From positions 336,403 through 368,402 of the forward strand of contig CAZXEQ010000001.1 in assembly GCA_964640155.1 (NCBI GenBank): a stretch of DNA of 32,000 nt, written 5' to 3'. The notes below the pieces were generated by a model. The model searched no databases. It was not told where the DNA came from and was given only the letters and a program-made list of their open reading frames with translations. How positions within the stretch are numbered: position 1 is the stretch's first letter; every line of letters begins with the position of its first letter. The DNA is from an uncultured bacterium. Its GTDB lineage: Bacteria > Auribacterota > JACPWU01. Below, piece after piece: positions 1-17,830 of this stretch. The position numbers were made by a program, and so were the translations under genes.

Positions 1-1390
1 ACGTTTCTCCAAAAACTGTCTTGATACGAACCCCAAGATCAAATCTACTGAAAGATTCAGGTGGATTGCCGTCATAAAGCAGATCTTCAAAAATGCTTCT
101 AAAACTTTCTGGATGAGGAACCTCTCCTTCATAATAAGGATTCCCTTCTTTATCAACTCTCACTTCACTGGCCCGTAATTTTCTTCCCCCTTCATTTCCC
201 AAAGGTTCAATGCGAAGAGAAAGTCTATAAAGCATAGCCAAAAGTTTCTTAGCTCTTTCTTCTTTTGGAATATTGAAAAACCAATCTTTTAAAGACGTAC
301 GTTCACTTTCATCCACAATTTTTTCTACAACATAAAATGTTCCAAATTTCTTTCCATTTTGCGGCGGAGTTCTCATAACAAACTCCAAAGCCCCTGTTTT
401 TAAATTAATCACCTGATATGCAAGTGTTCCGTCACTTCCCATGAATGAAACAGGAGCATATCCATTTTTGACAAGTTCTGGATAAAGACTCATCAATTCA
501 TCTCTTTCTTCAGACCCTCTCCCTGCCATTGTTTCAAGAGTTGCTTCGACAAGATGTTGCACTTGAAAAGCTCTGTTGCGATCTGGAGTTGGAGTCGAAA
601 GCCAAGCTATTCCCCTACTTAAGCGTGTGGGAGGAGTTACATCCCACCCCTTCTGATAAAAATCTTTAATGCGCTTAGCAACTCTGGCTCGGAAATCATC
701 TTGGAATTGTCTGTTTGATTCAAAAGCTGTTGGAAGAAATCGTCCAATGATTCTTAATTGTTCTCTTCTATCTTCATTTAAGAATCCTGGCAAAACTTCA
801 AAAGATTTTTGAGCAATTTGAGCATCGACGAATTTTAAAAGATCTTCAAGTGAACGACCTGCCACTCCTTTTCCACCACGATAAGCTAGCTCACCACCAA
901 AATTTCCTTGAGCTTGAGCCATCGCCATTTGAATATCTAAAGCCCAAGCCAGAATATGAATCACTCGTTCAAGCGTAAAATCTTCGGAGATCTCTCCTCT
1001 ACCTTTACTTGCTTCAATTTCAGCCCCAAATCTCTGCCGAATATAAATTTCTGTTATTTCATGCCATTCATAAAAGGCCTGCTGATTTTGTGCAGGATCT
1101 TCATGCAAAGCCTTCTTGGAAACAAATACATAATTCACACCTCCCGCTTGTGCAGCAGGAAAATGAAATGCATTTTTAAGTCCTTTTTTTCTTGCTAATT
1201 TTCCAATCGGATCTTTTGTCTTTTCTGAATCATCATAAATCACAAGCTGATAAGAAATTTCTTTCTCTAATACATTTTGTTTTTTAGCTTCCGCTCGGCC
1301 TTGAGCATTTTTTATAAATGCTTGTACATCTTCCTTAGATACTTTCTGATCATTGTCTTGAGGGCCTGGCTCACCAATGTCTTTAAGGCG
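1..1390 (-). repeat. Protein-level super-repeat R3 (partial, truncated by the window edge)
   Basis: LKDIGEPGP ... NAFH (His 1165) ... YEWHEITEIY (His 1063) ... HILAWALDIQMA (958) ... KSFEVLPGFLNEDR ... KKLLAMLYRLSLRIEPLGNEGGRKLRASEVRVDKEGN. Confidence 0.7.
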
Positions 1391-4300
1391 ATTAACGGGA
1401 GTAGACTTAGATTTCTCAACAAGCCTACCCCAAGCATTGGGATCGATTTCCTGCATGAGATCTCTTAATCGTTCTCCAAAAGCTTTACCATTTCTATCCT
1501 CCATAGCAGCTCTAGACGGTTTGAACATTGCATCTAACGGATCAGACGCAAACAATCTTTGTGTACTCATAGATACTCTTTTTAATCTATCAATCGCAAC
1601 CTCTAGTGGTAGTCCTCGAAACGATATTGTTAGCTTAGGGAACAAAATTTCAAGCCGTTTCCAATCCGCCTCACTAAATATATTCCCATCAATATTGTCA
1701 AATCTACCATGATAGTCTGTACTTTCTCTTCCAAATAAAAATTCTAAAACTTTTAAACAAACTAACTCTTTACCGAGATCACTCCATCCCGTAGAATCTT
1801 TATTCGCATCCTCAGCAGATACTGGTTCTCCATCTGAAGTCATTAAGAGACCTCCTATTCCACCGGGTGAAACTCCAACCTTTCCATGGTAAATTTTGGC
1901 CATTAAGCCAATGATTCTTTTAAACTTTTCCTCACGAGAAATCAAAGTATGCTCTCTCAGCCACTTTGCCCAAACTGGGAGTGGCAATTTACATTCAGGG
2001 CCTTCTATATCAATGACAGCTTGAGGATCTAAAGGTAAAAGAGCATCTCTCACAACACCAAAGATTTCTTCAAATTCCGCAGTAGATGCTTGACGAGTCA
2101 AACGATGACCAATCTGTGTGCCATATATGCTCTCAGAGATAAGTTTTTTTATTATAGGATTACTTCCAAAAAAATCTTTTGCTATATCCGGTAACTTGGA
2201 GAATCCTGTCTCAAAATAGACAGACCAAGAATTTGGTTCTCCCAAAAGAGCATAAAGAATTAAAGTGCGATAGAAACGTGAGATTTTCTGAAAAGGTTTA
2301 AGAAAAACAATTTTTTGAGGATTAAGAACGACTAATATTTTTCCACCTTCGTTCTTAAAAGTAATGTCTTTCCATGGGTCAAAATCTGATAAAGAAAATC
2401 CATCTTTAAACAATTTATCGATTTTAAACATCATTGTATAAAGAACTGTTAGAAATGCTTTATTTCTTTCTTCTTTTCCTTGTGTTGAAAGCAACTCTCT
2501 CCATTCTTCAAAAGTCATTACTTTTTCATCTTTAGATTCTTCTTTTTTAGCTTCTGGCAGAGGTTGGACTTTACCTCCCATAGCTTCCATATCCAACAAA
2601 GCTTTAAAATCCAATCTTTCAAGAATTTTTCTGATAGCCACACTAGGATCTTTCAGCTTTTCAGCAGGAGGAAATAGAATTTGTCCCACAAGAGTAATAA
2701 AGTCTTTATCTTCACCATAAATTCCTATGATTTTTTGCTTAAGAACATCATGTGTTACATTTTCTTTTGGCCAAGAATCTCTTGAACCATAGAGTGTTTG
2801 AAAAAGTAATGAACGAAAGGCTTCTGCAAAAATTGCAGAGTTCGAAAATGACATGCCTGTATTTTCTTGGCGAGGAACAATCTTATTGGGGTTAATAATA
2901 AATTGATCTCCATCAAGGCCTCTTAGAATAATAATATCCGTTAGAGGATCAAAATCTGTCAGTTTGTAACCATTCTCATACAAATGATTTCCTTGAAGTA
3001 TGACGGCATAAAGAAGTGTGGTAAATGCTTTTACTTCTTCTTCCTGAGAGCGATGGACAAATTGCCACCAACGTCCAAGCCTCGGTTGGATCTCTATAGA
3101 GTCAGTTTGTAAAACCCCTGTATAATCTTCTCGAAGATCGGGCCCCATTCTCGATGAAACTACTCTTTGATTGATATGACCTGTTGCAATTTCTATGGTT
3201 AAATAAGCATATACATTTGAATGTCCTTGCTCATACATAGATGGAATTTTTTTAAAAATAAGATAGCCCCGTTGAGAGAGCAATGCATGAACTTTTTTAA
3301 GTGCTGAAGATCCTTTTGCCCCTACTCTTTTCATACTTATTAGAGCTGCTTCTAAAAATTTCTCTGTTTGTTTATCTTGATTCTCTTCTTTCGTTGGTTT
3401 ACGTATTTGAGCAAACCATCCAGCAACCCTATTCTCTTCAGGTCTAGTCCCTTCTCGATAATGCCAAGCCAGCCTTTTCGCTAACATTTCCTGTACAAAT
3501 TGCTCAAACTCAATAAATATTTTTCCCACTTCCACTCCAAAACATCGTGTTGCCCAAGCTTCTTGCATGGACCGATCTTCAGTCAACATCTCAAGGGCAA
3601 GATCAAAGGACATATTGTTAATATAAGTTTCCATAAAACTTTTTAGCTCTTCCATAGATCGAGCTTGAGTAGTCATTCCCCGCATGGGAACAGTACCTAC
3701 GTTATATTGAAAAAGCCCAGGATTTCTCGCCATGCGAAGATCATTTGCCCAAGCCAAAATATGAAAGAGACGCTGAGCCGTATATCCCTTGGGCAATTTT
3801 TTAGCTTTTTCTAAAGCATAAACTTCTTCCCCATACTTCATCTCTGCATAAATTTCAGAGAGCTCATGTTGTTCGTAAAGTGGCCGATGAGCTCCCGCAT
3901 TTTTTGAGACAAAAATATAATAAGTTTTCTTAGCAGGATCAGGATTTGGCAAATGAAAGGCATGATTTAGTTTTTTCTCTCTTGCGATTTGTCCGATAGG
4001 ATCTTGTGTTTTTTCATCATTGTCATAGATCACCACTTGAAACTTAATTTCTACTCCATCCACAAGACATGTAGTTTCAGAACCTGCTCGATTTTGAGCC
4101 TCATCTAAAATAATCTTTTGTTCTTTTTCATTTAAACTTGCCCCATTTCCATGGTATGGACCAGGGTCTTTAAAAGCACCAACGCCTTTTTTCCCCAACA
4201 CTCTCCCAATCAAGCCACTAAACCAACCTGATGAGCTTGACGAACTACCCGAAGTTGTTGGCTCAGGAGGAAGAGATGTGTTGCTATGCACCTGAACCCT

Positions 4301-5722
4301 ATGTTCTGGATCTAGTTCATCGAGCACTCTAAGCAACGATCCTATTTGTGAGAAATAAAGAGGATTTTTAATGGAATCGTCAAATAATTGAACATCGAAA
4401 ATCAATCTTAGAAAATTATCAAAACCGGGAGTCACCTTAAAAAGACGAGCTGCTTGCGCCTGAATTTCAGAAAAAGAAGGATAGTTAGAATGAAATCTCT
4501 CTCCATACAAGGCCCATAATATTAAAGCAGGTAAAGCATTCTGAACAATAGGAGTAAATTCTCCTATAGCGGTTTTATCTTTTGAGCCACGGATGATTTT
4601 CTTTTCCATAATACTAAAAACGATTTTTCCGCCCCGCTCTTCAAAGATGATATCTGTCAACGGATCAAAATCTTGGGATAATTGATACCCGCGTCCTCTT
4701 AATGATTCATCTTCCCTTGCCAACCAATAACAAAGAATGATTAAGAATAGTCCTCTTTGTTTAGGGTCCACAGGCAAAGATGCCCACCACTGACCAAACG
4801 AATTAATTTCACCTACTACATCATCTTCTTCATGAGCAATGTGAATATTTATCTCATTCTTAGTCATTGTTGCTTCAATAACTTTACCTGACTCTAAATC
4901 CATCACCTGATAAATACAGGAATCATTTTCCTCATTGCGGGGAGATACTTGCTTAATAATGGCAAAACCTTGTTCAAGAAATTTGGGAAAAGCTTTTTCA
5001 ACTTTTCCTGCCTCCCTTGAACCAAATTTTTTAGCACTAGCGGTAGCTTTCGCTTTAAATCTCTTGAGCTGTTCTTCTTTTTTTAACTCTTTCTCCCTTC
5101 TATAGTGCTCAACCATTCTTGCTTCAGCCATTTTGATGACTTCACTGTTAAACTCATCGAGCAAAAAAAGTTCATCTCCCATAACATTTTTAGAAAGCTC
5201 ACTTTGATGGAATCTGTCCTCGAGTAATATCTCTAATGCATCGTCAAAAGACATTGTTCCTATTTTTTCTTGCATAAATCGCTTTAAAGCAGCTAAATCT
5301 TGTGCTTGAACAGACATCTTTCTATAAGCAGTAGCTCCTGTACCTTGAGAACTCCCGAAAAGTTCAGGATGTGCAGCCATTCGAACATCATTGGCCCAAG
5401 CTAGAATATGTTTGATCCTCGTCCATGTAAATTCTTTGGGATAGTCTAAATGGCCTTGTTCAAGTAAAGTTTTCAACCATGCAAATTTTATATCAATAAA
5501 AATTTCTGAAAGTTCATGCTGTTCGCAAAGGCCTTGATTGCTGGCATTATCAGAAACGAATACATAATAAGTTCCATCATCATCTTGCAAATGAAAAGCG
5601 TTCTCTAACTTTTCATCCGCAGCTAAATTCCCAATAGTAGGTTCTTTTGCTTTCTTCTCATTTTCATTAAACGCAACTAAGTAATACTCAATAATCTGAC
5701 CATCTATAATGCGTGATCTCAT
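1..5722 (-). CDS. Giant repeat protein, part 2 (second ORF or continuation of part 1), 3-prime partial, at least 1907 codons from ATG 5722
   Basis: The same minus frame stays open from 5860 to position 2 (1953 codons, no in-phase tta/cta/tca on the + strand). First canonical starts after the TGA are TTG 5749 and ATG 5722 (MRSRIIDGQIIEYYLVAFNENE...). The ORF runs off the left edge, ending ...FSRFDLGVRIKTVFGET at position 2. It contains three paralogous super-repeats. The start codon is uncertain. Confidence 0.7.
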   Translation of the reverse strand, partial: MRSRIIDGQIIEYYLVAFNENEKKAKEPTIGNLAADEKLENAFHLQDDDGTYYVFVSDNASNQGLCEQHELSEIFIDIKFAWLKTLLEQGHLDYPKEFTWTRIKHILAWANDVRMAAHPELFGSSQGTGATAYRKMSVQAQDLAALKRFMQEKIGTMSFDDALEILLEDRFHQSELSKNVMGDELFLLDEFNSEVIKMAEARMVEHYRREKELKKEEQLKRFKAKATASAKKFGSREAGKVEKAFPKFLEQGFAIIKQVSPRNEENDSCIYQVMDLESGKVIEATMTKNEINIHIAHEEDDVVGEINSFGQWWASLPVDPKQRGLFLIILCYWLAREDESLRGRGYQLSQDFDPLTDIIFEERGGKIVFSIMEKKIIRGSKDKTAIGEFTPIVQNALPALILWALYGERFHSNYPSFSEIQAQAARLFKVTPGFDNFLRLIFDVQLFDDSIKNPLYFSQIGSLLRVLDELDPEHRVQVHSNTSLPPEPTTSGSSSSSSGWFSGLIGRVLGKKGVGAFKDPGPYHGNGASLNEKEQKIILDEAQNRAGSETTCLVDGVEIKFQVVIYDNDEKTQDPIGQIAREKKLNHAFHLPNPDPAKKTYYIFVSKNAGAHRPLYEQHELSEIYAEMKYGEEVYALEKAKKLPKGYTAQRLFHILAWANDLRMARNPGLFQYNVGTVPMRGMTTQARSMEELKSFMETYINNMSFDLALEMLTEDRSMQEAWATRCFGVEVGKIFIEFEQFVQEMLAKRLAWHYREGTRPEENRVAGWFAQIRKPTKEENQDKQTEKFLEAALISMKRVGAKGSSALKKVHALLSQRGYLIFKKIPSMYEQGHSNVYAYLTIEIATGHINQRVVSSRMGPDLREDYTGVLQTDSIEIQPRLGRWWQFVHRSQEEEVKAFTTLLYAVILQGNHLYENGYKLTDFDPLTDIIILRGLDGDQFIINPNKIVPRQENTGMSFSNSAIFAEAFRSLLFQTLYGSRDSWPKENVTHDVLKQKIIGIYGEDKDFITLVGQILFPPAEKLKDPSVAIRKILERLDFKALLDMEAMGGKVQPLPEAKKEESKDEKVMTFEEWRELLSTQGKEERNKAFLTVLYTMMFKIDKLFKDGFSLSDFDPWKDITFKNEGGKILVVLNPQKIVFLKPFQKISRFYRTLILYALLGEPNSWSVYFETGFSKLPDIAKDFFGSNPIIKKLISESIYGTQIGHRLTRQASTAEFEEIFGVVRDALLPLDPQAVIDIEGPECKLPLPVWAKWLREHTLISREEKFKRIIGLMAKIYHGKVGVSPGGIGGLLMTSDGEPVSAEDANKDSTGWSDLGKELVCLKVLEFLFGRESTDYHGRFDNIDGNIFSEADWKRLEILFPKLTISFRGLPLEVAIDRLKRVSMSTQRLFASDPLDAMFKPSRAAMEDRNGKAFGERLRDLMQEIDPNAWGRLVEKSKSTPVNRLKDIGEPGPQDNDQKVSKEDVQAFIKNAQGRAEAKKQNVLEKEISYQLVIYDDSEKTKDPIGKLARKKGLKNAFHFPAAQAGGVNYVFVSKKALHEDPAQNQQAFYEWHEITEIYIRQRFGAEIEASKGRGEISEDFTLERVIHILAWALDIQMAMAQAQGNFGGELAYRGGKGVAGRSLEDLLKFVDAQIAQKSFEVLPGFLNEDRREQLRIIGRFLPTAFESNRQFQDDFRARVAKRIKDFYQKGWDVTPPTRLSRGIAWLSTPTPDRNRAFQVQHLVEATLETMAGRGSEERDELMSLYPELVKNGYAPVSFMGSDGTLAYQVINLKTGALEFVMRTPPQNGKKFGTFYVVEKIVDESERTSLKDWFFNIPKEERAKKLLAMLYRLSLRIEPLGNEGGRKLRASEVRVDKEGNPYYEGEVPHPESFRSIFEDLLYDGNPPESFSRFDLGVRIKTVFGET
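1391..4180 (-). repeat. Protein-level super-repeat R2 (about 930 aa): X-domain plus two degenerate kinase-like modules plus tail
   Basis: VGAFKDPGPY (4183-4154) ... NAFH (His 3955) ... EQHELSEIY (His 3868) ... HILAWANDLRMA (3763) ... MSFDLALEMLTEDR ... YKLTDFDPLTDIIIL (2956-2945) ... FSLSDFDPWKDITF (2386-2375). Confidence 0.75.
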
Positions 5723-5823
5723 TTCCTTCTTTGAGGAAGCTTTGGCCAATTTAATAAACTGCTGTTTCTGGGCATCTTTTAAAACCTTTTCCCCACGATA
5801 AGCACCTGGATTTTTTAAAGCAC
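4181..5823 (-). repeat. Protein-level super-repeat R1 (about 548 aa): X-domain plus degenerate kinase-like module
   Basis: VGALKNPGAY ... NAFH (His 5593) ... EQHELSEIF (His 5518) ... HILAWANDVRMA (5410) ... MSFDDALEILLEDR ... YQLSQDFDPLTDIIF (4672-4661). Paralogous to R2 and R3 at the same relative positions. Confidence 0.75.
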
Positions 5824-5860
5824 CCACTGGTTCTGGTTGAGGAGTTGACTGGCGAGCCCC

Positions 5861-8800
5861 TTCAAGCAATGTTCGAAGGAGTGGGATCAATGATTCAAGC
5901 ATTTGATTCTCCTTAATCGCTTGCATAAGAGGGCCATCTAAAGCAAAAGGATCAGAGTCAATATGGGTATCAAAATAGATCGAAGATCCTTCAACACTAT
6001 ATAATTTTTTGCCAGTTATTAATTTATATAAAAGAACTCCCACTGAAAAAAGATCGGATGTCCCATAACTTTGCCTCTCTGCTAATTTAGCCATTCCAAA
6101 ATCAATCAAAGCTACTTCATCTATCTCATCATCATATAAAATATTAGCTGGTTTAATATCACTGTGAAAAACTCCAGCCTGATTGGCTAATTGAACAATT
6201 TTAAAAATCCTTCGAAATAAACGATCGACTTGAGAAACGTTTTCAGAAGTCCAGTTCTTAGAAGTTGATCTTCTTAAAGATTCATATAATTTGCTTCTTG
6301 TAATATCTTTTCCCTTAACTTCCATTGCAATGAAATAACCGAAAGAAGAATCTCCTTCTGCATAGTATTTTGGGATACCTTCTTGAACTTTTTGAAGCAT
6401 AACAGCATCATTCCTTACATGTTGATCATGTTCTCTTGATTTAGAAATCTTTAAGGCAATCCGCTTTCCTGTCTGGAAATTTCCTGTCGTTAAATCAATA
6501 GCATCCCAAACTGTAGCAAAAGCCCCACTTCCTAGCTGATTCACAACATAGTATTTACCTGCAACAATCACTCCAGATTGAACTTGCACTACATCTCCTT
6601 GCCCTCGTGTAATATTCGCCAGAAACTGAATTTTTTGATCTAATTTACTTTTGGGATCTAATACATTCACAAAAACGGTCGATAAATCACTATGCCCACC
6701 TAAAATGCCATCCAAAACTTCATCTGCTAAGGCTGCAGCATAGGCTTCAGGTATAGCTGCCACACGGCGATAGATTCCACCTGGCATATAAACGGCATTA
6801 CGACGGGTACCTGTATGAAGATCCCAATGACGGTTATGACCTTCATAGCCTAGGAAATCCAGATTATTGAGAACAACTACAGTGGCTTTTTCCAAGCGAT
6901 ATTCGAAAAATTGAAGAAGGCTTTCTGCATCAATTTTATCTAAAGATTCTTTAGTTCCAGGATAAGTTTCTCTAAAATTTTTATAGTCCTCTACTAAGGC
7001 AAGGTAGGACTGACGTTTCTTTTCTCGTATTTTTGGATCTTTGTCTTTGCTTTCTCGTAACTCTGAAATACTCTCACGAACTAAATTAAGGCGAGTTTCA
7101 ATTTCCTTAAACAAATCTTCTCTTTTCTCTCTAAGAACGGTTTGGGCATTTATAAAATATTCATCATCTTTAGGATCTTCCGTTCTAAAAAACGCTTGAT
7201 CCCCTTCTAACATTCTTTGCTCACCATGTACGACCGTTACCGCTTTATTATTTCCTTTGGTCTGACTCTGTATGCGATAATCAATTCTTTCTTCACGATA
7301 ATCATCCATTCCCACGCGATGAGCTTTGGCTGTTGTAACTGTTTCACTTGTGTCTTTCTTTATTTTGTCTGTTAACATTATAGAAAATGCTTTTGCAATT
7401 TCTCCAGCAACTGAATCTTTATATTTTTCTTCATCATAAACATAATCTCCTCTAAGTTGGTCGAGCTTCTCTTGATCATTTTTCTCTATACATTCTTGAA
7501 TGTACCTTTGAACACGAAGTGGAATAAATTCTTGTCCTCCTGACAAACTCCATCGGATAAAAGCTTCTACTCCATCTACCATTTCAGGATGAACAAAAGT
7601 GAGTCTTTCATCTAACCAAACAGGGGTTTCTCCTTTCTCATATTGCTCTCCCAACTCATGCGCCATCAAAGAAAGTATTTCTTCTGCCTGTGCTTCTCCA
7701 GAGAAACTTTTGATCTTTTCATAATGAGTTTGATTAATAATCACATGTACAATGCCATTTTTCGTCTGGACTTGCCGTGTCGCCTGAACATCTTTGTGAA
7801 GTTTATTGGAAGTGTGAACTTTAACTGTTCCTGATTGGAGAGCTACTTGTAATGCTTTTAAAAGCTCTCGATATTTTTCATGTCTATCTTTTCCATAGGA
7901 AGGAGGTGGTGCTCGATCCTCTAAAATTAATTCAGAATCTGATGTACTTACAATTTTTTCAATATACTTCTCCATCAAAACCACAACCTCTTGTGGTATT
8001 TCAAGCAACGGTTCATTCGTTAAGTCAATCGGCTTACCCGTCGCAGGATCTTTCGGAACCGCATGGTCATCCCCACGAGAACCCACAACTTTAGCCGCCA
8101 TACCAGCAATCTGCTCAACCTGAGACTGTACTCCTCTGTCATTTTGATTTTGAAAACCACTCGCAGGAGAAACAGTACTCACCTCTAAAACACGTGTTGG
8201 CAAAGGCAAAACTGGGATATTTCTAGGATGCTGATAAGGCCCTCCTTGTACTTGTATTTGTAAAGGCGTCTGCACGGTATTTGATATATGAAGATGAGGG
8301 AATGCTCTTTGTATTCTTTCAGGGGTTATTCCTACAAGAATCGTCATGTCATTAAAAATCATTGGAGGGACTCCTACCCCCTCTATCATAGTTGGTGCAT
8401 TCATCCGAGCTTCTGCTTGAAATAGTGTTCCAAATAATACAGATTGATGAGGCCTATGACTGGATTGCAGCGCAGATAAAAAATATCCACTAGCAGACTG
8501 GTCAAAACTACTGACAGAAACAGTGGTTGGAGGCATACCATTTTGCAACAATTGCATTTGTGTAGTTTGAGTAACCAATTGTCCATTAAAGTTATAAGAA
8601 AAACATGAATCATTAATAAAAACAACTTCTTCTAAATCTCCTCTGGCAACCAAGGCTCGTGCCATTTCTTCAGGACTAATATCCGTTTCATCATCAAGCG
8701 CTAATAGCTGAGGCAAGCCATGTCCATTAAAGTAAATAGTGAGGGGTCCTCTGGAATTTCTAATCTCACTTAAAGCTGCTTGCTTATCTTGCCCTCCCTG

Positions 8801-11800
8801 GAAGGGGCGAGAAATAAGGTCTGGTGAAACACCCGAATCTATTTCTAACTCTGTAATTTCAGATGGATCAAATTCTTGTCCTGCTGCAAAAATATTAATC
8901 ACTCTTCTGCCAGGACCAAAAACAACTCTTTGAGATAATCGTCTCCTCTCTTCAGAAATAAGATGAACAACCCTTCCAATATTTTCGGATGTTATTTCAA
9001 TGTTATATCTCCTGAGAAGCCGATAAGCACACAGTGCTATCGAATGTTGACTTTCAATAGACATGTTTCGCGTTATATTTCTAAATGCAGTATCTAAATA
9101 GATTTGATAATGAGGGAGAGGATGATGTACTGCATCTTCAGGCAGAGAAAGTGCTGCTTGGGCTGGAGAAGAAGGTCGTATTAAATTTGCATTTAACTGT
9201 TGAATTCTGCGAAGCGCATGGGCGATAGGAATACAAGCACTTCCTGGAGTATATTCCCTTGTCAGAACTGTTTCTAATGCTACAACTAGACTTGATTGGA
9301 TAAGATCTGGTCTTATTTCACAAAACCTCTCTATTAGCCGTGTGATTTGGCCAATAGCAGATGTATAAATCCTTCCATCAGATGTGTTATCTGGTAAATA
9401 TCGGTTTAAGAATCTCTCAAGAATTGCAATGTCATTTGCTTGAAACAGTTCTGGACGAGTCCTTCCAAAAGAGCCTAGAAGAAAGACGCCTGCATTTGCA
9501 TAAACTCCATCTTCTTGATTTGGTAAAGTAAAAATGGTCATCATAGAGCGAAATAGACTGGGCGTAAGCCAGGCTTGAGGGATAGCTCCCTCCCGAACTG
9601 AATATCTAAAAAACCTTGGAATCATTGCTAACACTTCTAATGCTCTTTTCCTAAGCATATGAGGAACAAAGGCAGAACTCGTATTTTGAATAAATCGCTG
9701 CAATCGAAGCATATCTTCTTCTCTAAAATTCTCTGCCCCACCTCTAACTGCATCTCTTCCTTCAACGTCCACTCTCCTAGCAATATCACCAAGCAAAGTC
9801 ATTCCTCTATGATATTCCTCCCCGTCTTGTTGTGAAATTTCTCCTGAGGATTGAATTGCAATAGAAGGTCTAAAACAAGCGCCTAAAGACAAAATTAATG
9901 CCATCCACCATGACGAAAGAAATCCAACACGAGGAGGTCGAGGCAATACACGAGATCTATCCTGTTCAGATTGTTTTTTAACCCACACTTGAGCCAACTC
10001 CACAAGCCCAGGTTGATTTTCACCATAACGTTGGATAAGGTCTTGTGTAATCTCCGCAGCATCACTTGTTGTTCCTCTTAACTCCTCAAGTTCTGCAAAA
10101 AATTGTGTAACGATGGTATTGGGATGTGCTGTTTTGAGGGATTCAATTAAACGGTCTATATCTTCTAGCTTTAATTTCTCGAATGCTTTAGCCCAATCAT
10201 TCAATGTATTTCTGATTACGCCTTGTGCACTCATCCACATACTTACAAGAATTTCTTCATCCTTTTGTGTGTATTCTTCACCTGCTATAATTTTTTTGAT
10301 GGTTCCACAGAAAGCTGCAGGTATGAGTGTCCATTTCCCATCTTCTGTTCTTTCATGACTTGCTAGTTTTTTCTGAGAAAATTCTATATTTTCAAAGTCA
10401 TAAGGACCTTGCATGCGTTTTTCATAAATATTTTCATCTACTTTGCCATGCATGTTGGGGATCACAACTGCATAAGATATTCCCTTTTCGTCTAAAATTT
10501 TTTCAATGCCTTCGGTGTGAAAGCCACCGGTTACTAAAACTGTAGTTCGTATCTCGTAATTCGTATTTCGTAAAACCACTTGTTCTTCTATACTTCCTGC
10601 TTCCTGTCTCCTGCTTCGTGCGTCTATTTGCTTTAACGCATTTTCCGCCATAACTCGGTCTCGAGCCAAGGCTAGATCATAAAAGTGAAGCGATTCCTGG
10701 ATGAGGAAGCTGATATTGTTCGAGCTTGTATAAGCACCTTCCTGCTGAGCACTTCTCGACTTCGCTTCGCTGCGCTCGAAGAATATGAGTGGTTTCTGCC
10801 CAATATCAATACTGTTCGAGCCTAGTCGAGAACTCATATATTTTTTTATATTCTCCAGCCCACTTCTCGTCGCTTTCAGCGCTATCAAATCCTTAATCAA
10901 TCCCCACTCTCTTACCATACGTTCTTCTTGAATTACGTTGTGGGCTTTTGAAAGCTCTAGCATCAAAGTATTGATCTTTTGCTCTAGCTCTTCATAGATA
11001 GATTCTGATTTAAGATCTTCTTGATGCAGCTGAAGCTTGTAGTAATGAGAAAGTCCTGGATAGTTTTCTTCTAAGGATAATCCATTTTTTTCATAAGCCT
11101 CTTTCAAATGAGTCAAATATTCCAATATTCCCATTCGACCTAATCGATATTCCAAACTCCATTTCACTATTGTTTTAAGTTCTTCATTTTTGAGCCGATG
11201 ACTTAATTCATCTAAAAGCTTTTTCAAGTCCGATTGAATTGTTTCACTTTGTATGGCTTTAGAAGTTTTAAAAATTTCGAGCATTTGCTCTAAACTCCCA
11301 TCCAGCTTTTGCCCATGCTTTTGTAGTAAGACCTTTAATTGCATTAATGCTTCGTCTAATTTTAGCTCTCCTTCTTTAAGTTGATTTTGAAGGTTTAAAA
11401 GCTCTTTCATTTCTTTAGTGTAGTTCTTTTCTATGATGTTTTTGATTTGTTCATCAATTTTGTTTATTTCAGAAGAAAGTTCTTTGGACAGTCTACGTAC
11501 TTTTAAAAAAGATTTTAAATTCTCAATATAAAGATCTCTCTTTTCTACTCCGTACAGGTCAAGCGAGTCCTGAAACCCTGAACGCAATGCCGCATATTCA
11601 GCTCCGGTGAGATATCCCTCTTTTAGAAATTGCAAGCCTACTTTGTCTCGAACTTTATGATCTGGAAAAGCCTTCAAAAGTTCTAAATCAAATTCCCCTT
11701 CTGCTCCTTCCATAAAAACATCTTTGAGGCCAAGTTTCTGCTGAAATACTTCCAAAGTTTTAGCAATGTTGATTTGGGCTTCTTCCTGACAATGCAAATC

Positions 11801-12049
11801 CTGAATGAGAATGATTAGAGAATCTTTCTTCTCTCCTTCTTTGATTTTGGAAAGGGTAGCACCTGAAAGCTTCAACTGTTTCAGTTGATCTAAAACTGAG
11901 AGGTTTTTAAGTGTAGATGATGATGAAGCCGCTGAAGAAAGAACCTCTGCCATCGATTGATGGTCTGGGAAAATACAAACAAGAGAGAAAATAAAGACGA
12001 AAACAATCCGACATAATTTTAATAAGCAAGCGTTCATTAATCTGGACAT
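5861..12049 (-). CDS. Giant multidomain protein, part 1 (2062 codons, ATG 12049 to in-frame TGA 5863-5861): signal anchor, coiled-coil-rich region, internal TM, caspase-like module, Ser/Thr kinase-like domain
   Basis: Hand scan of the minus frame whose codon first base is 1 mod 3. Upstream stop is TAA 12064-12062, first ATG is 12049 (second ATG 12037), and there is no stop until TGA 5863-5861. Translation starts MSRLMNACLLKLCRIVFVFIFSLVCIFPDHQSMAEV. AAGGA abuts ATG 12049 and lies 12 nt before ATG 12037, so the exact start is uncertain. Kinase and caspase-like motifs are in frame (separate entries). Absent from the supplied ORF track. Confidence 0.8.
5890..6560 (-). other. Hanks-type Ser/Thr protein-kinase-like domain
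   Basis: YYVVNQLGSGAFATVW (G-loop, 6532-6506), KRIALK (Lys codon 6451-6449), VFHSDIKPANIL (6166-6137), LIDFG (DFG 6103-6095), SDLFSVGVLLYKLITG. The HxD Asp and the DFG Asp are 19 residues apart. There is no APE motif and only about 12 residues between DFG and the DxFSxG helix. Confidence 0.8.
8560..8935 (-). other. Clan-CD (caspase/legumain-like) cysteine-peptidase-like module
   Basis: Hydrophobic strand RRVINIFAAG, then PLTIYFNGHG (His codon 8722-8720). 39 residues later comes EEVVFINDSCFS (Cys codon 8605-8603). A hydrophobic strand followed by His-Gly, then about 40 aa, then a hydrophobic strand followed by Cys, is the clan CD catalytic-dyad layout. Confidence 0.45.
9872..9928 (-). other. 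Predicted internal transmembrane helix of the giant protein (about aa 708-726)
   Basis: RSRVLPRPPR followed by a 19-residue hydrophobic segment VGFLSSWWMALILSLGACF, then RPSIAIQSSGE. Confidence 0.45.
10545..10620. repeat. Two imperfect tandem heptamer arrays inside the giant ORF
   Basis: 10545-10572 reads GTTCGTA TCTCGTA ATTCGTA TTTCGTA. 10593-10620 reads CTTCCTG CTTCCTG TCTCCTG CTTCGTG. On the minus strand they are translated as ...RSRRQEAGSIEEQVVLRNTNYEIRTT... Confidence 0.7.
11945..12049 (-). other. N-terminal signal peptide or signal-anchor of the giant protein
   Basis: Basic n-region (MSRLMNACLLKLCR) followed by a hydrophobic run IVFVFIFSLVCIF, then PDHQSMA-EV. Confidence 0.5.
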
Positions 12050-12084
12050 TCCTTGTTGTTTTTAAAGCGGCAAGTTCAGCCTAT

Positions 12085-15350: not shown

Positions 15351-17830
<2,480 letters not shown>

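Follow-up and report, generated by a model that had tools for sequence, protein, structure and literature searches.

A repeated domain with an invariant histidine-glutamate signature is paired with kinase-fold domains in a giant protein of an uncultured Auribacterota bacterium

The window analysed here is a stretch of 32,000 nucleotides from an uncultured bacterium of the Auribacterota (lineage JACPWU01; GenBank assembly GCA_964640155.1, contig CAZXEQ010000001.1, positions 336,403 to 368,402), and its first part is occupied by a giant gene. A single uninterrupted reading frame on the minus strand runs from position 12061 to position 2, where it leaves the window, and it holds three long super-repeats that an initial annotation had described as sharing an unrecognised domain. 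The complete product of the gene, which was recovered by searching 1.84 billion representative proteins, is 5,549 residues long (P0001) and its database entry carries no protein name. Each super-repeat is composed of two domains: one of about 250 residues, here called X, followed by one with the protein-kinase fold. The features of the gene are collected in Table 1. Residues are numbered along the open reading frame (ORF) of the window, in which residue i begins at nucleotide 12061-3(i-1); the corresponding number in P0001 is smaller by 4.

Table 1. Features of the giant gene, in window coordinates.
Feature	Position	Strand	Motifs and evidence
Giant gene, first 4,016 codons	2..12049	-	ATG at 12049; start MSRLMNAC at 12026-12049
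Shared N-terminal domain (residues ~70-560)	10382-11854	-	IQDLH 11792-11806; GGFHT 10514-10528
Proposed weak fourth X copy (not upheld)	7550..7790	-	MAHELGEQY 7640-7666; only the HExxE string in common; Phe at the third His position
Canonical Ser/Thr protein kinase, directly upstream of X1	5837..6574	-	HSDIKPANI 6140-6166; Pfam Pkinase
X copy 1 (X1)	5072..5830	-	NAFH 5591-5602; HELSEIF 5498-5518; HILAWA 5393-5410; LLEDR 5213-5227
K1, pseudokinase after X1	4184..5071	-	QDFDPLTDI (DFDP 4661-4672) replaces HRDxKxxN; AlphaFold and Foldseek
X copy 2 (X2)	3437..4183	-	HAFH 3953-3964; HELSEIY 3848-3868; HILAWA 3746-3763; LTEDR 3572-3586
K2, pseudokinase after X2	2657..3436	-	DFDP 2945-2956; self-BLAST to K1, E 5e-12
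K2b, extra partial kinase-like C-lobe	2027..2656	-	DFDP 2375-2386; self-BLAST to K2, E 3e-11, and to K1, E 1.5e-7
Spacer between K2b and X3	1397..2026	-	No Pfam match; no internal repeat partner
X copy 3 (X3)	632..1396	-	NAFH 1163-1174; HEITEIY 1043-1063; HILAWA 941-958; LNEDR 767-781
K3, start of a third kinase-like domain, truncated at the edge of the window	2..631	-	More degenerate; no DFDP

Tiled self-BLAST placed the super-repeats at residues 2078-2560, 2627-3130 and 3555->4020, with an additional half copy at residues 3171-3280. The X domains match one another strongly (X1 and X2, E 1.4e-28 and 43% identity; X2 and X3, E 1.75e-29; X1 and X3, E 5.9e-18), and the halves that follow them do so as well (E 5e-12). 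In an alignment of the three X copies 52 columns are invariant, copies 2 and 3 being 39% and 30% identical to X1. The initial annotation was right about the super-repeats and their common domain; the motifs that it named are all where it had placed them, as are the histidine codons at 5518/5410, 3868/3763 and 1063/958, and the distance from the first to the second of each pair is 36, 35 and 35 residues. Its view of the repeat as a single domain survives only in part: the repeat is real, and its second half is a separate domain that has a protein-kinase fold and lacks the catalytic residues of a kinase. The sequence comes from a metagenome-derived assembly, and it might be asked whether the repeats resemble one another by chance or through their composition, or whether the contig was collapsed or duplicated during assembly. 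We found nothing that supports such an artefact. Self-BLAST E values go down to 1e-29, the 12-kb frame is uninterrupted, and copies that are only 30-39% identical in protein are old duplications and therefore not assembly duplicates. Moreover, an independent metagenome-assembled genome (MAG) of Candidatus Auribacterota, the sole match from a scan of genome contigs, contains a 57%-identical fragment of an orthologue in which the end of X1, K1 and the beginning of X2 follow one another as they do here. We regard the probability of an artefact as negligible.

The kinase-like domains of the protein are of two kinds. Immediately upstream of X1 is a canonical Ser/Thr protein kinase that matches Pfam Pkinase at E 1.2e-18 with 67.9 bits, where the cutoff is 31.7, contains both HSDIKPANI and IDFG, and is also matched by NCBIfam and PADLOC kinase models. 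The domains that follow the X copies have no Pfam Pkinase match, and hhalign against true kinase domains gives a probability of 0.2%. Their kinase character came from structure prediction. The AlphaFold model of K1 has a predicted local distance difference test score (pLDDT) of 68 overall and of about 80 over residues 10-210, with a predicted template modelling score (pTM) of 0.55, and the top 50 matches listed by Foldseek in the PDB are all protein kinases or pseudokinases, among them DAPK1, CaMKII, WNK1, the kinase of a lanthipeptide synthetase and the CASK pseudokinase. The best of these is 2y4p_C (E 1.9e-3, probability 0.99); E values range from 2e-3 to 2e-2, the alignments span about 250 columns, and the TM-scores are modest at 0.3-0.37. 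The lysine of the VAIK position is absent from the post-X domains, as is DFG, and the catalytic loop reads (S)QDFDPLTDI. A kinase fold that lacks the catalytic residues is the mark of a pseudokinase or of an atypical enzyme, and the post-X domain is therefore one or the other.

The acidic loop that stands in place of the catalytic loop, DFDP(L/W)(T/K)DI, is kept in K1, K2, K2b and the Auribacterota orthologue and is missing from K3; judged from its sequence, it could be an atypical active site instead of a simply dead one. Tandem pseudokinase modules offer a useful comparison. The domain after each X copy resembles them in being kinase-folded and in having lost the VAIK lysine, the HRD/N loop and DFG, and differs from them in possessing an acidic loop of its own and in having no sequence-level similarity to Pkinase; we found no description of such a module paired with an X-type domain. 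The order of domains recurs outside the Auribacterota. In a Chlamydiota protein (P0003) an X domain at residues 1363-1640 is placed directly ahead of an active kinase (residues 1663-1950; Pkinase E 1.6e-32). Since X is followed by a kinase-fold domain in both P0001 and P0003, the pair is a recurring unit.

A profile built from the three X copies and run against the 1.84 billion representative proteins found three further carriers of the domain: P0003, a protein of 2,688 residues from a Chlamydiota MAG (MBI1884639.1; E 6.8e-9), P0005, a protein of 719 residues (E 1.6e-4), and P0006, a protein of 5,896 residues from an Elusimicrobiota MAG (MBI2119911.1; E 2.0e-4). P0003 is labelled only as a 'serine/threonine protein kinase' and P0006 as a 'hypothetical protein'. 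Two further candidates, P0002 and P0004, were rejected as homologues because they are repeat proteins that score through many weak partial matches. A word-prefiltered homologue search gave no match with either the three-copy or a seven-sequence alignment, and with P0005 as query it found P0005 alone; since the carriers are present in the collection searched, this outcome reflects the prefilter and does not show that relatives are absent. A hidden Markov model (HMM) of the family also matches two metagenome loci (E 1.5e-31 and 6e-19), whose reading frames extend over at least 2,125 residues in L004, where the frame ends at the edge of the locus, and over 3,453 residues in L005. No member of the family was found in a scan of viral contigs or by tblastn against plasmids. 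X is a rare family, confined to uncultured genomes of the Auribacterota, Chlamydiota and Elusimicrobiota type, and most of the proteins that carry it are giants.

P0005 is the small member of the set: it has one X domain and an N-terminal signal-like leader. A near-identical leader of about 45 residues (MKNN..T..I..ILITALL.SNI.WA.P..AGN.R.DCLSAESQF) begins the product of the next gene at that locus (P0005 is encoded at L006 91-2250 and its neighbour at 2335-3057; the neighbour has 240 residues and no Pfam match), and the likeness of the two sequences suggests an export or targeting signal common to a small effector-like gene family. In P0006, L004, L005 and P0005 the X domain has no kinase neighbour. 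Its occurrence in a small leader-bearing protein and away from kinases in L004, L005 and P0006 fits an autonomous module.

Nine X domains from five protein lineages, with 23-26% identity between lineages, were aligned for the analysis of conservation. Both the H-E-x-x-E motif and the histidine and tryptophan of H(I/V)LAW are invariant in all nine, and so are four further residues: the phenylalanine of the Y(V/I)F strand, a later phenylalanine, the arginine of (E/D)(D/N)R and the phenylalanine of FE.SV. An arginine three residues ahead of the second histidine is retained in eight of the nine. The initial annotation had counted three conserved histidines and a glutamate; the HE..E motif and the HILAWA histidine deserve that description, and the NAFH histidine, kept in seven of nine domains, does not, being replaced by asparagine in P0005 and by glutamine in one P0003 copy. 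It had also proposed that the idea of a catalytic site would fall if the His/Glu positions were lost in homologues, and we find HE..E and the HILAWA histidine retained at 23-26% identity, even in a degenerate copy. That copy is a fourth X-like segment of P0001 at residues ~4240-4335, downstream of the others and beyond the window (hhalign probability 80%, E 1.4e-5); it keeps YVFV, HEIYE and the later histidine in register and has lost other motifs. Another fourth copy had been suspected upstream of the canonical kinase. This suggestion is not supported, for the segment has no match to the family HMMs or to Pfam, and its hhalign probability against the family profile, 0.1%, is that of an unrelated control segment.

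The contention that X belongs to no recognised family was upheld by every search that we made. When the 4,020-residue part of the protein that lies within the window was compared with Pfam, only the canonical kinase was matched (residues 1838-1998), and NCBIfam and PADLOC likewise matched that kinase and nothing in X. Seven X domains searched singly against Pfam and PHROGs with E values up to 10 gave no recurring family; PF13084 (DUF3943) appeared with one copy only, at 17.1 bits against a cutoff of 27, and was treated as a chance match. Neither phmmer nor a profile search found a match among PDB sequences. The model that AlphaFold2 made of X1 from a seven-sequence alignment is confident (mean pLDDT 83.4, pTM 0.84); the means of 10-residue blocks are 87-94 where the blocks bear the motifs, and the single poor region is a lineage-specific loop at residues 160-170. 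Foldseek compared this model with 350,542 PDB chains, and among the 50 matches listed the best E value was 0.32, TMq did not exceed 0.19 and there was no zincin. Nothing significant was found in BFVD either; several of the few annotated matches there are zincin peptidases (a phage AR9 zincin, IrrE and M48), all of them non-significant and amounting to a weak hint only. X is a genuine, previously unannotated domain family: it exists, it folds confidently, it is repeated, and its catalytic-looking H-E-E-H-W signature is invariant across phyla.

Several families were considered and set aside because the positions of their motifs or the order of their secondary-structure elements do not fit: HEPN (Rx4-6H), hemerythrin/HHE, deaminases (H/CxE...PCxxC), JAMM, the ADP-ribosyltransferases with H-Y-E or R-S-E motifs, PD-(D/E)xK, and the phospho-lyase domain of class III/IV lanthipeptide synthetases. 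An 'HEXXE' motif has been given for fungal M35 peptidases (PMC7215534); it looks like a misprint of HEXXH, and we have not used it as a precedent.

The order of elements in the X1 model is helix (17-29), strand (33-40), strand (43-52), helix (64-70), strand (76-80, NAFH), strand (86-91, YYVFVS), helix (97-113, HELSEI), helix (115-122) and helix (134-151, RxxHILAWA), with four helices after these. In zincins of clan MA a sheet and a backing helix are followed by the active-site helix and then by the ligand helix. Metal binding, hydrolase chemistry and a zincin-like geometry are inferred for X, as is a role for its pseudokinase partner. The reading that we favour, tentatively and at rather less than even confidence, is that X is a hydrolase dependent on a metal, zincin-like in its layout and with its ligands, two histidines and one glutamate, swapped in order. 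In the model a four-stranded sheet with its backing helix comes first, with (N/G)A(F/Y)H on its third strand and Y(V/I)F(V/L) on its fourth. The next helix bears H-E-x-x-E, whose histidine and second glutamate would lie one turn apart on the same face as metal ligands, with the first glutamate acting as general base. The later helix, R-x-x-H-x-L-A-W, would then supply the third ligand: its invariant histidine lies on helix 134-151, 24-38 residues past the first histidine, and in the model the arginine, histidine and tryptophan, at i, i+3 and i+7, would share one helical face. The ligand set would be that of the gluzincins, in the order HExxE...H and not HExxH...E. The three X modules, each next to a dead kinase-fold domain that would make a plausible docking or regulatory partner, would form an array that follows an active Ser/Thr kinase within a membrane-anchored giant multi-enzyme protein.

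Comparison with the gluzincins (MEROPS clan MA(E), for example thermolysin in M4 and neprilysin in M13) shows where this swapped-ligand reading gains and where it suffers. Like them, X begins with a small mixed sheet and a backing helix, and continues with a strand of the type N-A-F-aromatic, a second hydrophobic strand, an H-E-x-x-(ligand) helix and a later helix that would bear the third ligand; its putative ligands are two histidines and one glutamate, and the glutamate beside the first histidine never varies, as would befit a general base. The succession of NAF(H), strand and HExx parallels NAFW...MVYGDG...HELTH in thermolysin, the sequence of which we confirmed in the PDB (E 1.8e-211), and NAFY...IVFPAG...HEITH in neprilysin. 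Unlike the gluzincins, X has the motif HExxE...H in every copy and homologue, has neither profile nor pairwise similarity to them nor a Foldseek match to any solved zincin, and contains in its C-terminal four-helix part and its R-x-x-H-x-L-A-W helix elements for which we can name no counterpart.

Several observations weigh against X as a zincin-like hydrolase. HExxH is present in none of the nine aligned domains and is absent from the degenerate fourth copy, there being no histidine at +4. The residue that follows the first glutamate is often polar in the homologues (HEK, HED, HER), and a polar residue at this point is unusual for the active-site helix of a zincin. hhalign of X with thermolysin and with a presumed segment of neprilysin gave a probability below 1%. 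To these are added the failure of single X domains to find a recurring family, the absence of any zincin link among PDB sequences, and the empty Foldseek comparison with the PDB; Foldseek would often detect a zincin core of the canonical kind, so that the last of these results counts against the proposal too. Finally, three tandem X copies, each with a dead kinase, could equally be a scaffold of pseudo-enzymes. Membership of the zincins is thus not supported, HExxH being absent and there being neither a profile link nor a Foldseek link to solved zincins. A bolder proposal, which we consider rather doubtful, is that X founds an undescribed enzyme family with a fold of its own, unrelated to zincins, in which H-E-x-x-E...H would serve to modify or cleave proteins, the attached pseudokinase directing the reaction to its target or gating it; X and pseudokinase would then be a two-domain catalytic unit in effector-looking giants of the Auribacterota, Chlamydiota and Elusimicrobiota.

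The lack of a fold match for X in the PDB or BFVD, in spite of a confident X1 model, also allows a different chemistry, possibly on a new fold: X may be a metal-dependent phosphoesterase, a lyase, or a transferase acting on proteins that bear phosphate or another modification, together with its kinase-fold neighbours, and not a peptidase. In four instances X directly precedes a kinase-fold domain (X1-K1, X2-K2, X3-K3, and the first X domain of P0003, Xa, with its active kinase), phospho-signalling modules occur in other giants that carry X (L005 matches Metallophos at E 5e-12 and Zeta_toxin at 1e-3), and the invariant His/Glu set would suit the manganese, iron or zinc sites of phosphoesterases as well as it suits those of peptidases. 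However, X contains no known phosphatase, lyase or transferase motif and has no profile match, it is also found far from kinases in P0006, L004 and P0005, and its succession of two strands, HExx helix and ligand helix would seem closer to a zincin layout than to the known phosphoesterase folds. We consider such a chemistry rather unlikely.

The pairing with kinase-fold domains has a further possible explanation, in which X has no catalytic activity at all. The domain would then serve the kinase-fold domains as a structural or regulatory partner, or would bind proteins, with its histidines, glutamates and tryptophan holding a structural metal or a buried hydrogen-bond network. All three copies in P0001 are paired with dead kinase domains, suggesting a scaffold array of pseudo-enzymes; repeated modules that are not enzymes abound in the giant proteins of related phyla (bioRxiv 10.1101/2023.11.21.568195); and no enzymatic family matches X. 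Yet the positions of X that are best kept are polar and of a catalytic type (H, E and E, then H) and lie on one helical face, and they are invariant at 23-26% identity, even in the degenerate copy, whereas pseudo-enzymes usually lose such residues first. Moreover, several of the proteins have no kinase beside their X domain, and one small protein combines X with a signal-like leader. A non-catalytic X seems to us improbable on balance.

The remainder of P0001 and the other giants contain modules that help to place X in context. The N-terminus is hydrophobic in P0001, P0003, P0006, L004 and L005 alike, and is followed in each by a conserved domain of about 450 residues, in which Q-D-x-H, E-G-x-x-G, G-x-E, an arginine and G-G-(F/Y)-H...I-S-Y-x-x-x-x-P are invariant and which has a long helical insertion. 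It has no match in Pfam, and a profile search of the PDB gave weak calmodulin matches in the helical insertion that we regard as noise; its pattern of motifs resembles that of the ChaN / erythromycin-esterase / TIKI-TraB superfamily. Two hydrophobic segments, at ~11950-12049 (residues 15-33) and ~9850-9925 (residues ~714-733, GFLSSWWMALILSLGACF) on the minus strand, bracket this domain in P0001, and for that reason the sequence suggests that the N-terminal domain is periplasmic and the kinase/X array cytoplasmic. Residues 1107-1162 (8576-8743, minus strand) give a weak match to Peptidase_C13 (legumain) that is below the cutoff (E 0.03-0.06), with a His-Gly (YFNGHG, 8717-8734) and a Cys (INDSCFS, 8597-8617) like those of the caspase fold, and may be a cysteine-peptidase module.

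The C-terminal third of P0001, beyond the start of the window, contains more internal repeats at residues ~4690-5440. These comprise a duplicated module, some 150 residues long and ending in ISFA(H/R)MGY...IY(I/M)GRD...E(V/L)ERHRWRSENNY, and four tandem units of about 100 residues (GVQFFKR...VWAF(D/N)(K/Q)TQK...IFGFELR); one segment of the duplicated module was compared with Pfam and had no match. Among the other giants, L005 combines a P-loop kinase resembling Zeta_toxin with a calcineurin-like phosphoesterase. Nothing in Pfam matches the whole L004 protein (ORF 5537-11911), in which a JAMM/MPN+-like HxH...S..D string, FFHNHPTYEATNMWPGINDSNSYYY, was recognised by eye just upstream of X at residues ~1316-1340.

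In their great length and N-terminal hydrophobic anchors these proteins resemble the giant multi-enzyme proteins of uncultured bacteria of the Omnitrophota, of the Elusimicrobiota and of groups related to the Planctomycetes-Verrucomicrobia-Chlamydiae, and also multi-effector toxins of the MARTX type. They share with them the presence of many enzymatic modules (the kinase and the caspase/legumain-like motif here; the JAMM-like motif, phosphatase and zeta-toxin-like kinase in the relatives). Long unannotated stretches are a further likeness to the giant proteins previously described, and neither X nor the QDxH...EG...GGxH N-terminal domain is among the domains reported in that paper (bioRxiv 10.1101/2023.11.21.568195). 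In contrast to such systems, the genes for X lie amid core genes and not in toxin, secretion, mobile or defence islands. The neighbours of the giant gene are housekeeping genes, including genes for lipopolysaccharide (LPS) and 3-deoxy-D-manno-octulosonic acid (Kdo) synthesis, and from their translations we read them as comF, lptF/G, ahcY, metK, ptsI, hprK, lptA/B/C, kdsA-D, pyrG and hldE, of which comF was checked against Pfam. The L004 gene is placed after a secY-adk-map-rpsM-rpsK-rpsD-rpoA-rplQ operon. Because the neighbourhoods consist of housekeeping genes and differ between loci, they provide no clue to function. The G+C content of the window is about 35-41%. The ORFs read as ahcY (15351-16715) and metK (16631-17830), both on the minus strand, overlap by 85 nucleotides at 16631-16715; the first ~30 residues of ahcY look basic and of low complexity, so the start taken from the longest ORF is probably too far upstream.

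At present X is a domain of unknown function with no demonstrated new mechanism, and if it is non-catalytic it will take its place as an ordinary member of that category. If it is catalytic, it would be an additional enzyme family with an unusual arrangement of its metal site that current annotation has missed entirely, and its pairing with pseudokinases would exemplify the recruitment of a dead kinase as the partner of another enzyme. The giant membrane-anchored proteins of these poorly known phyla have in common an N-terminal domain together with kinases, pseudokinases, phosphatase and peptidase-like modules, and X would be the first functional handle on them.

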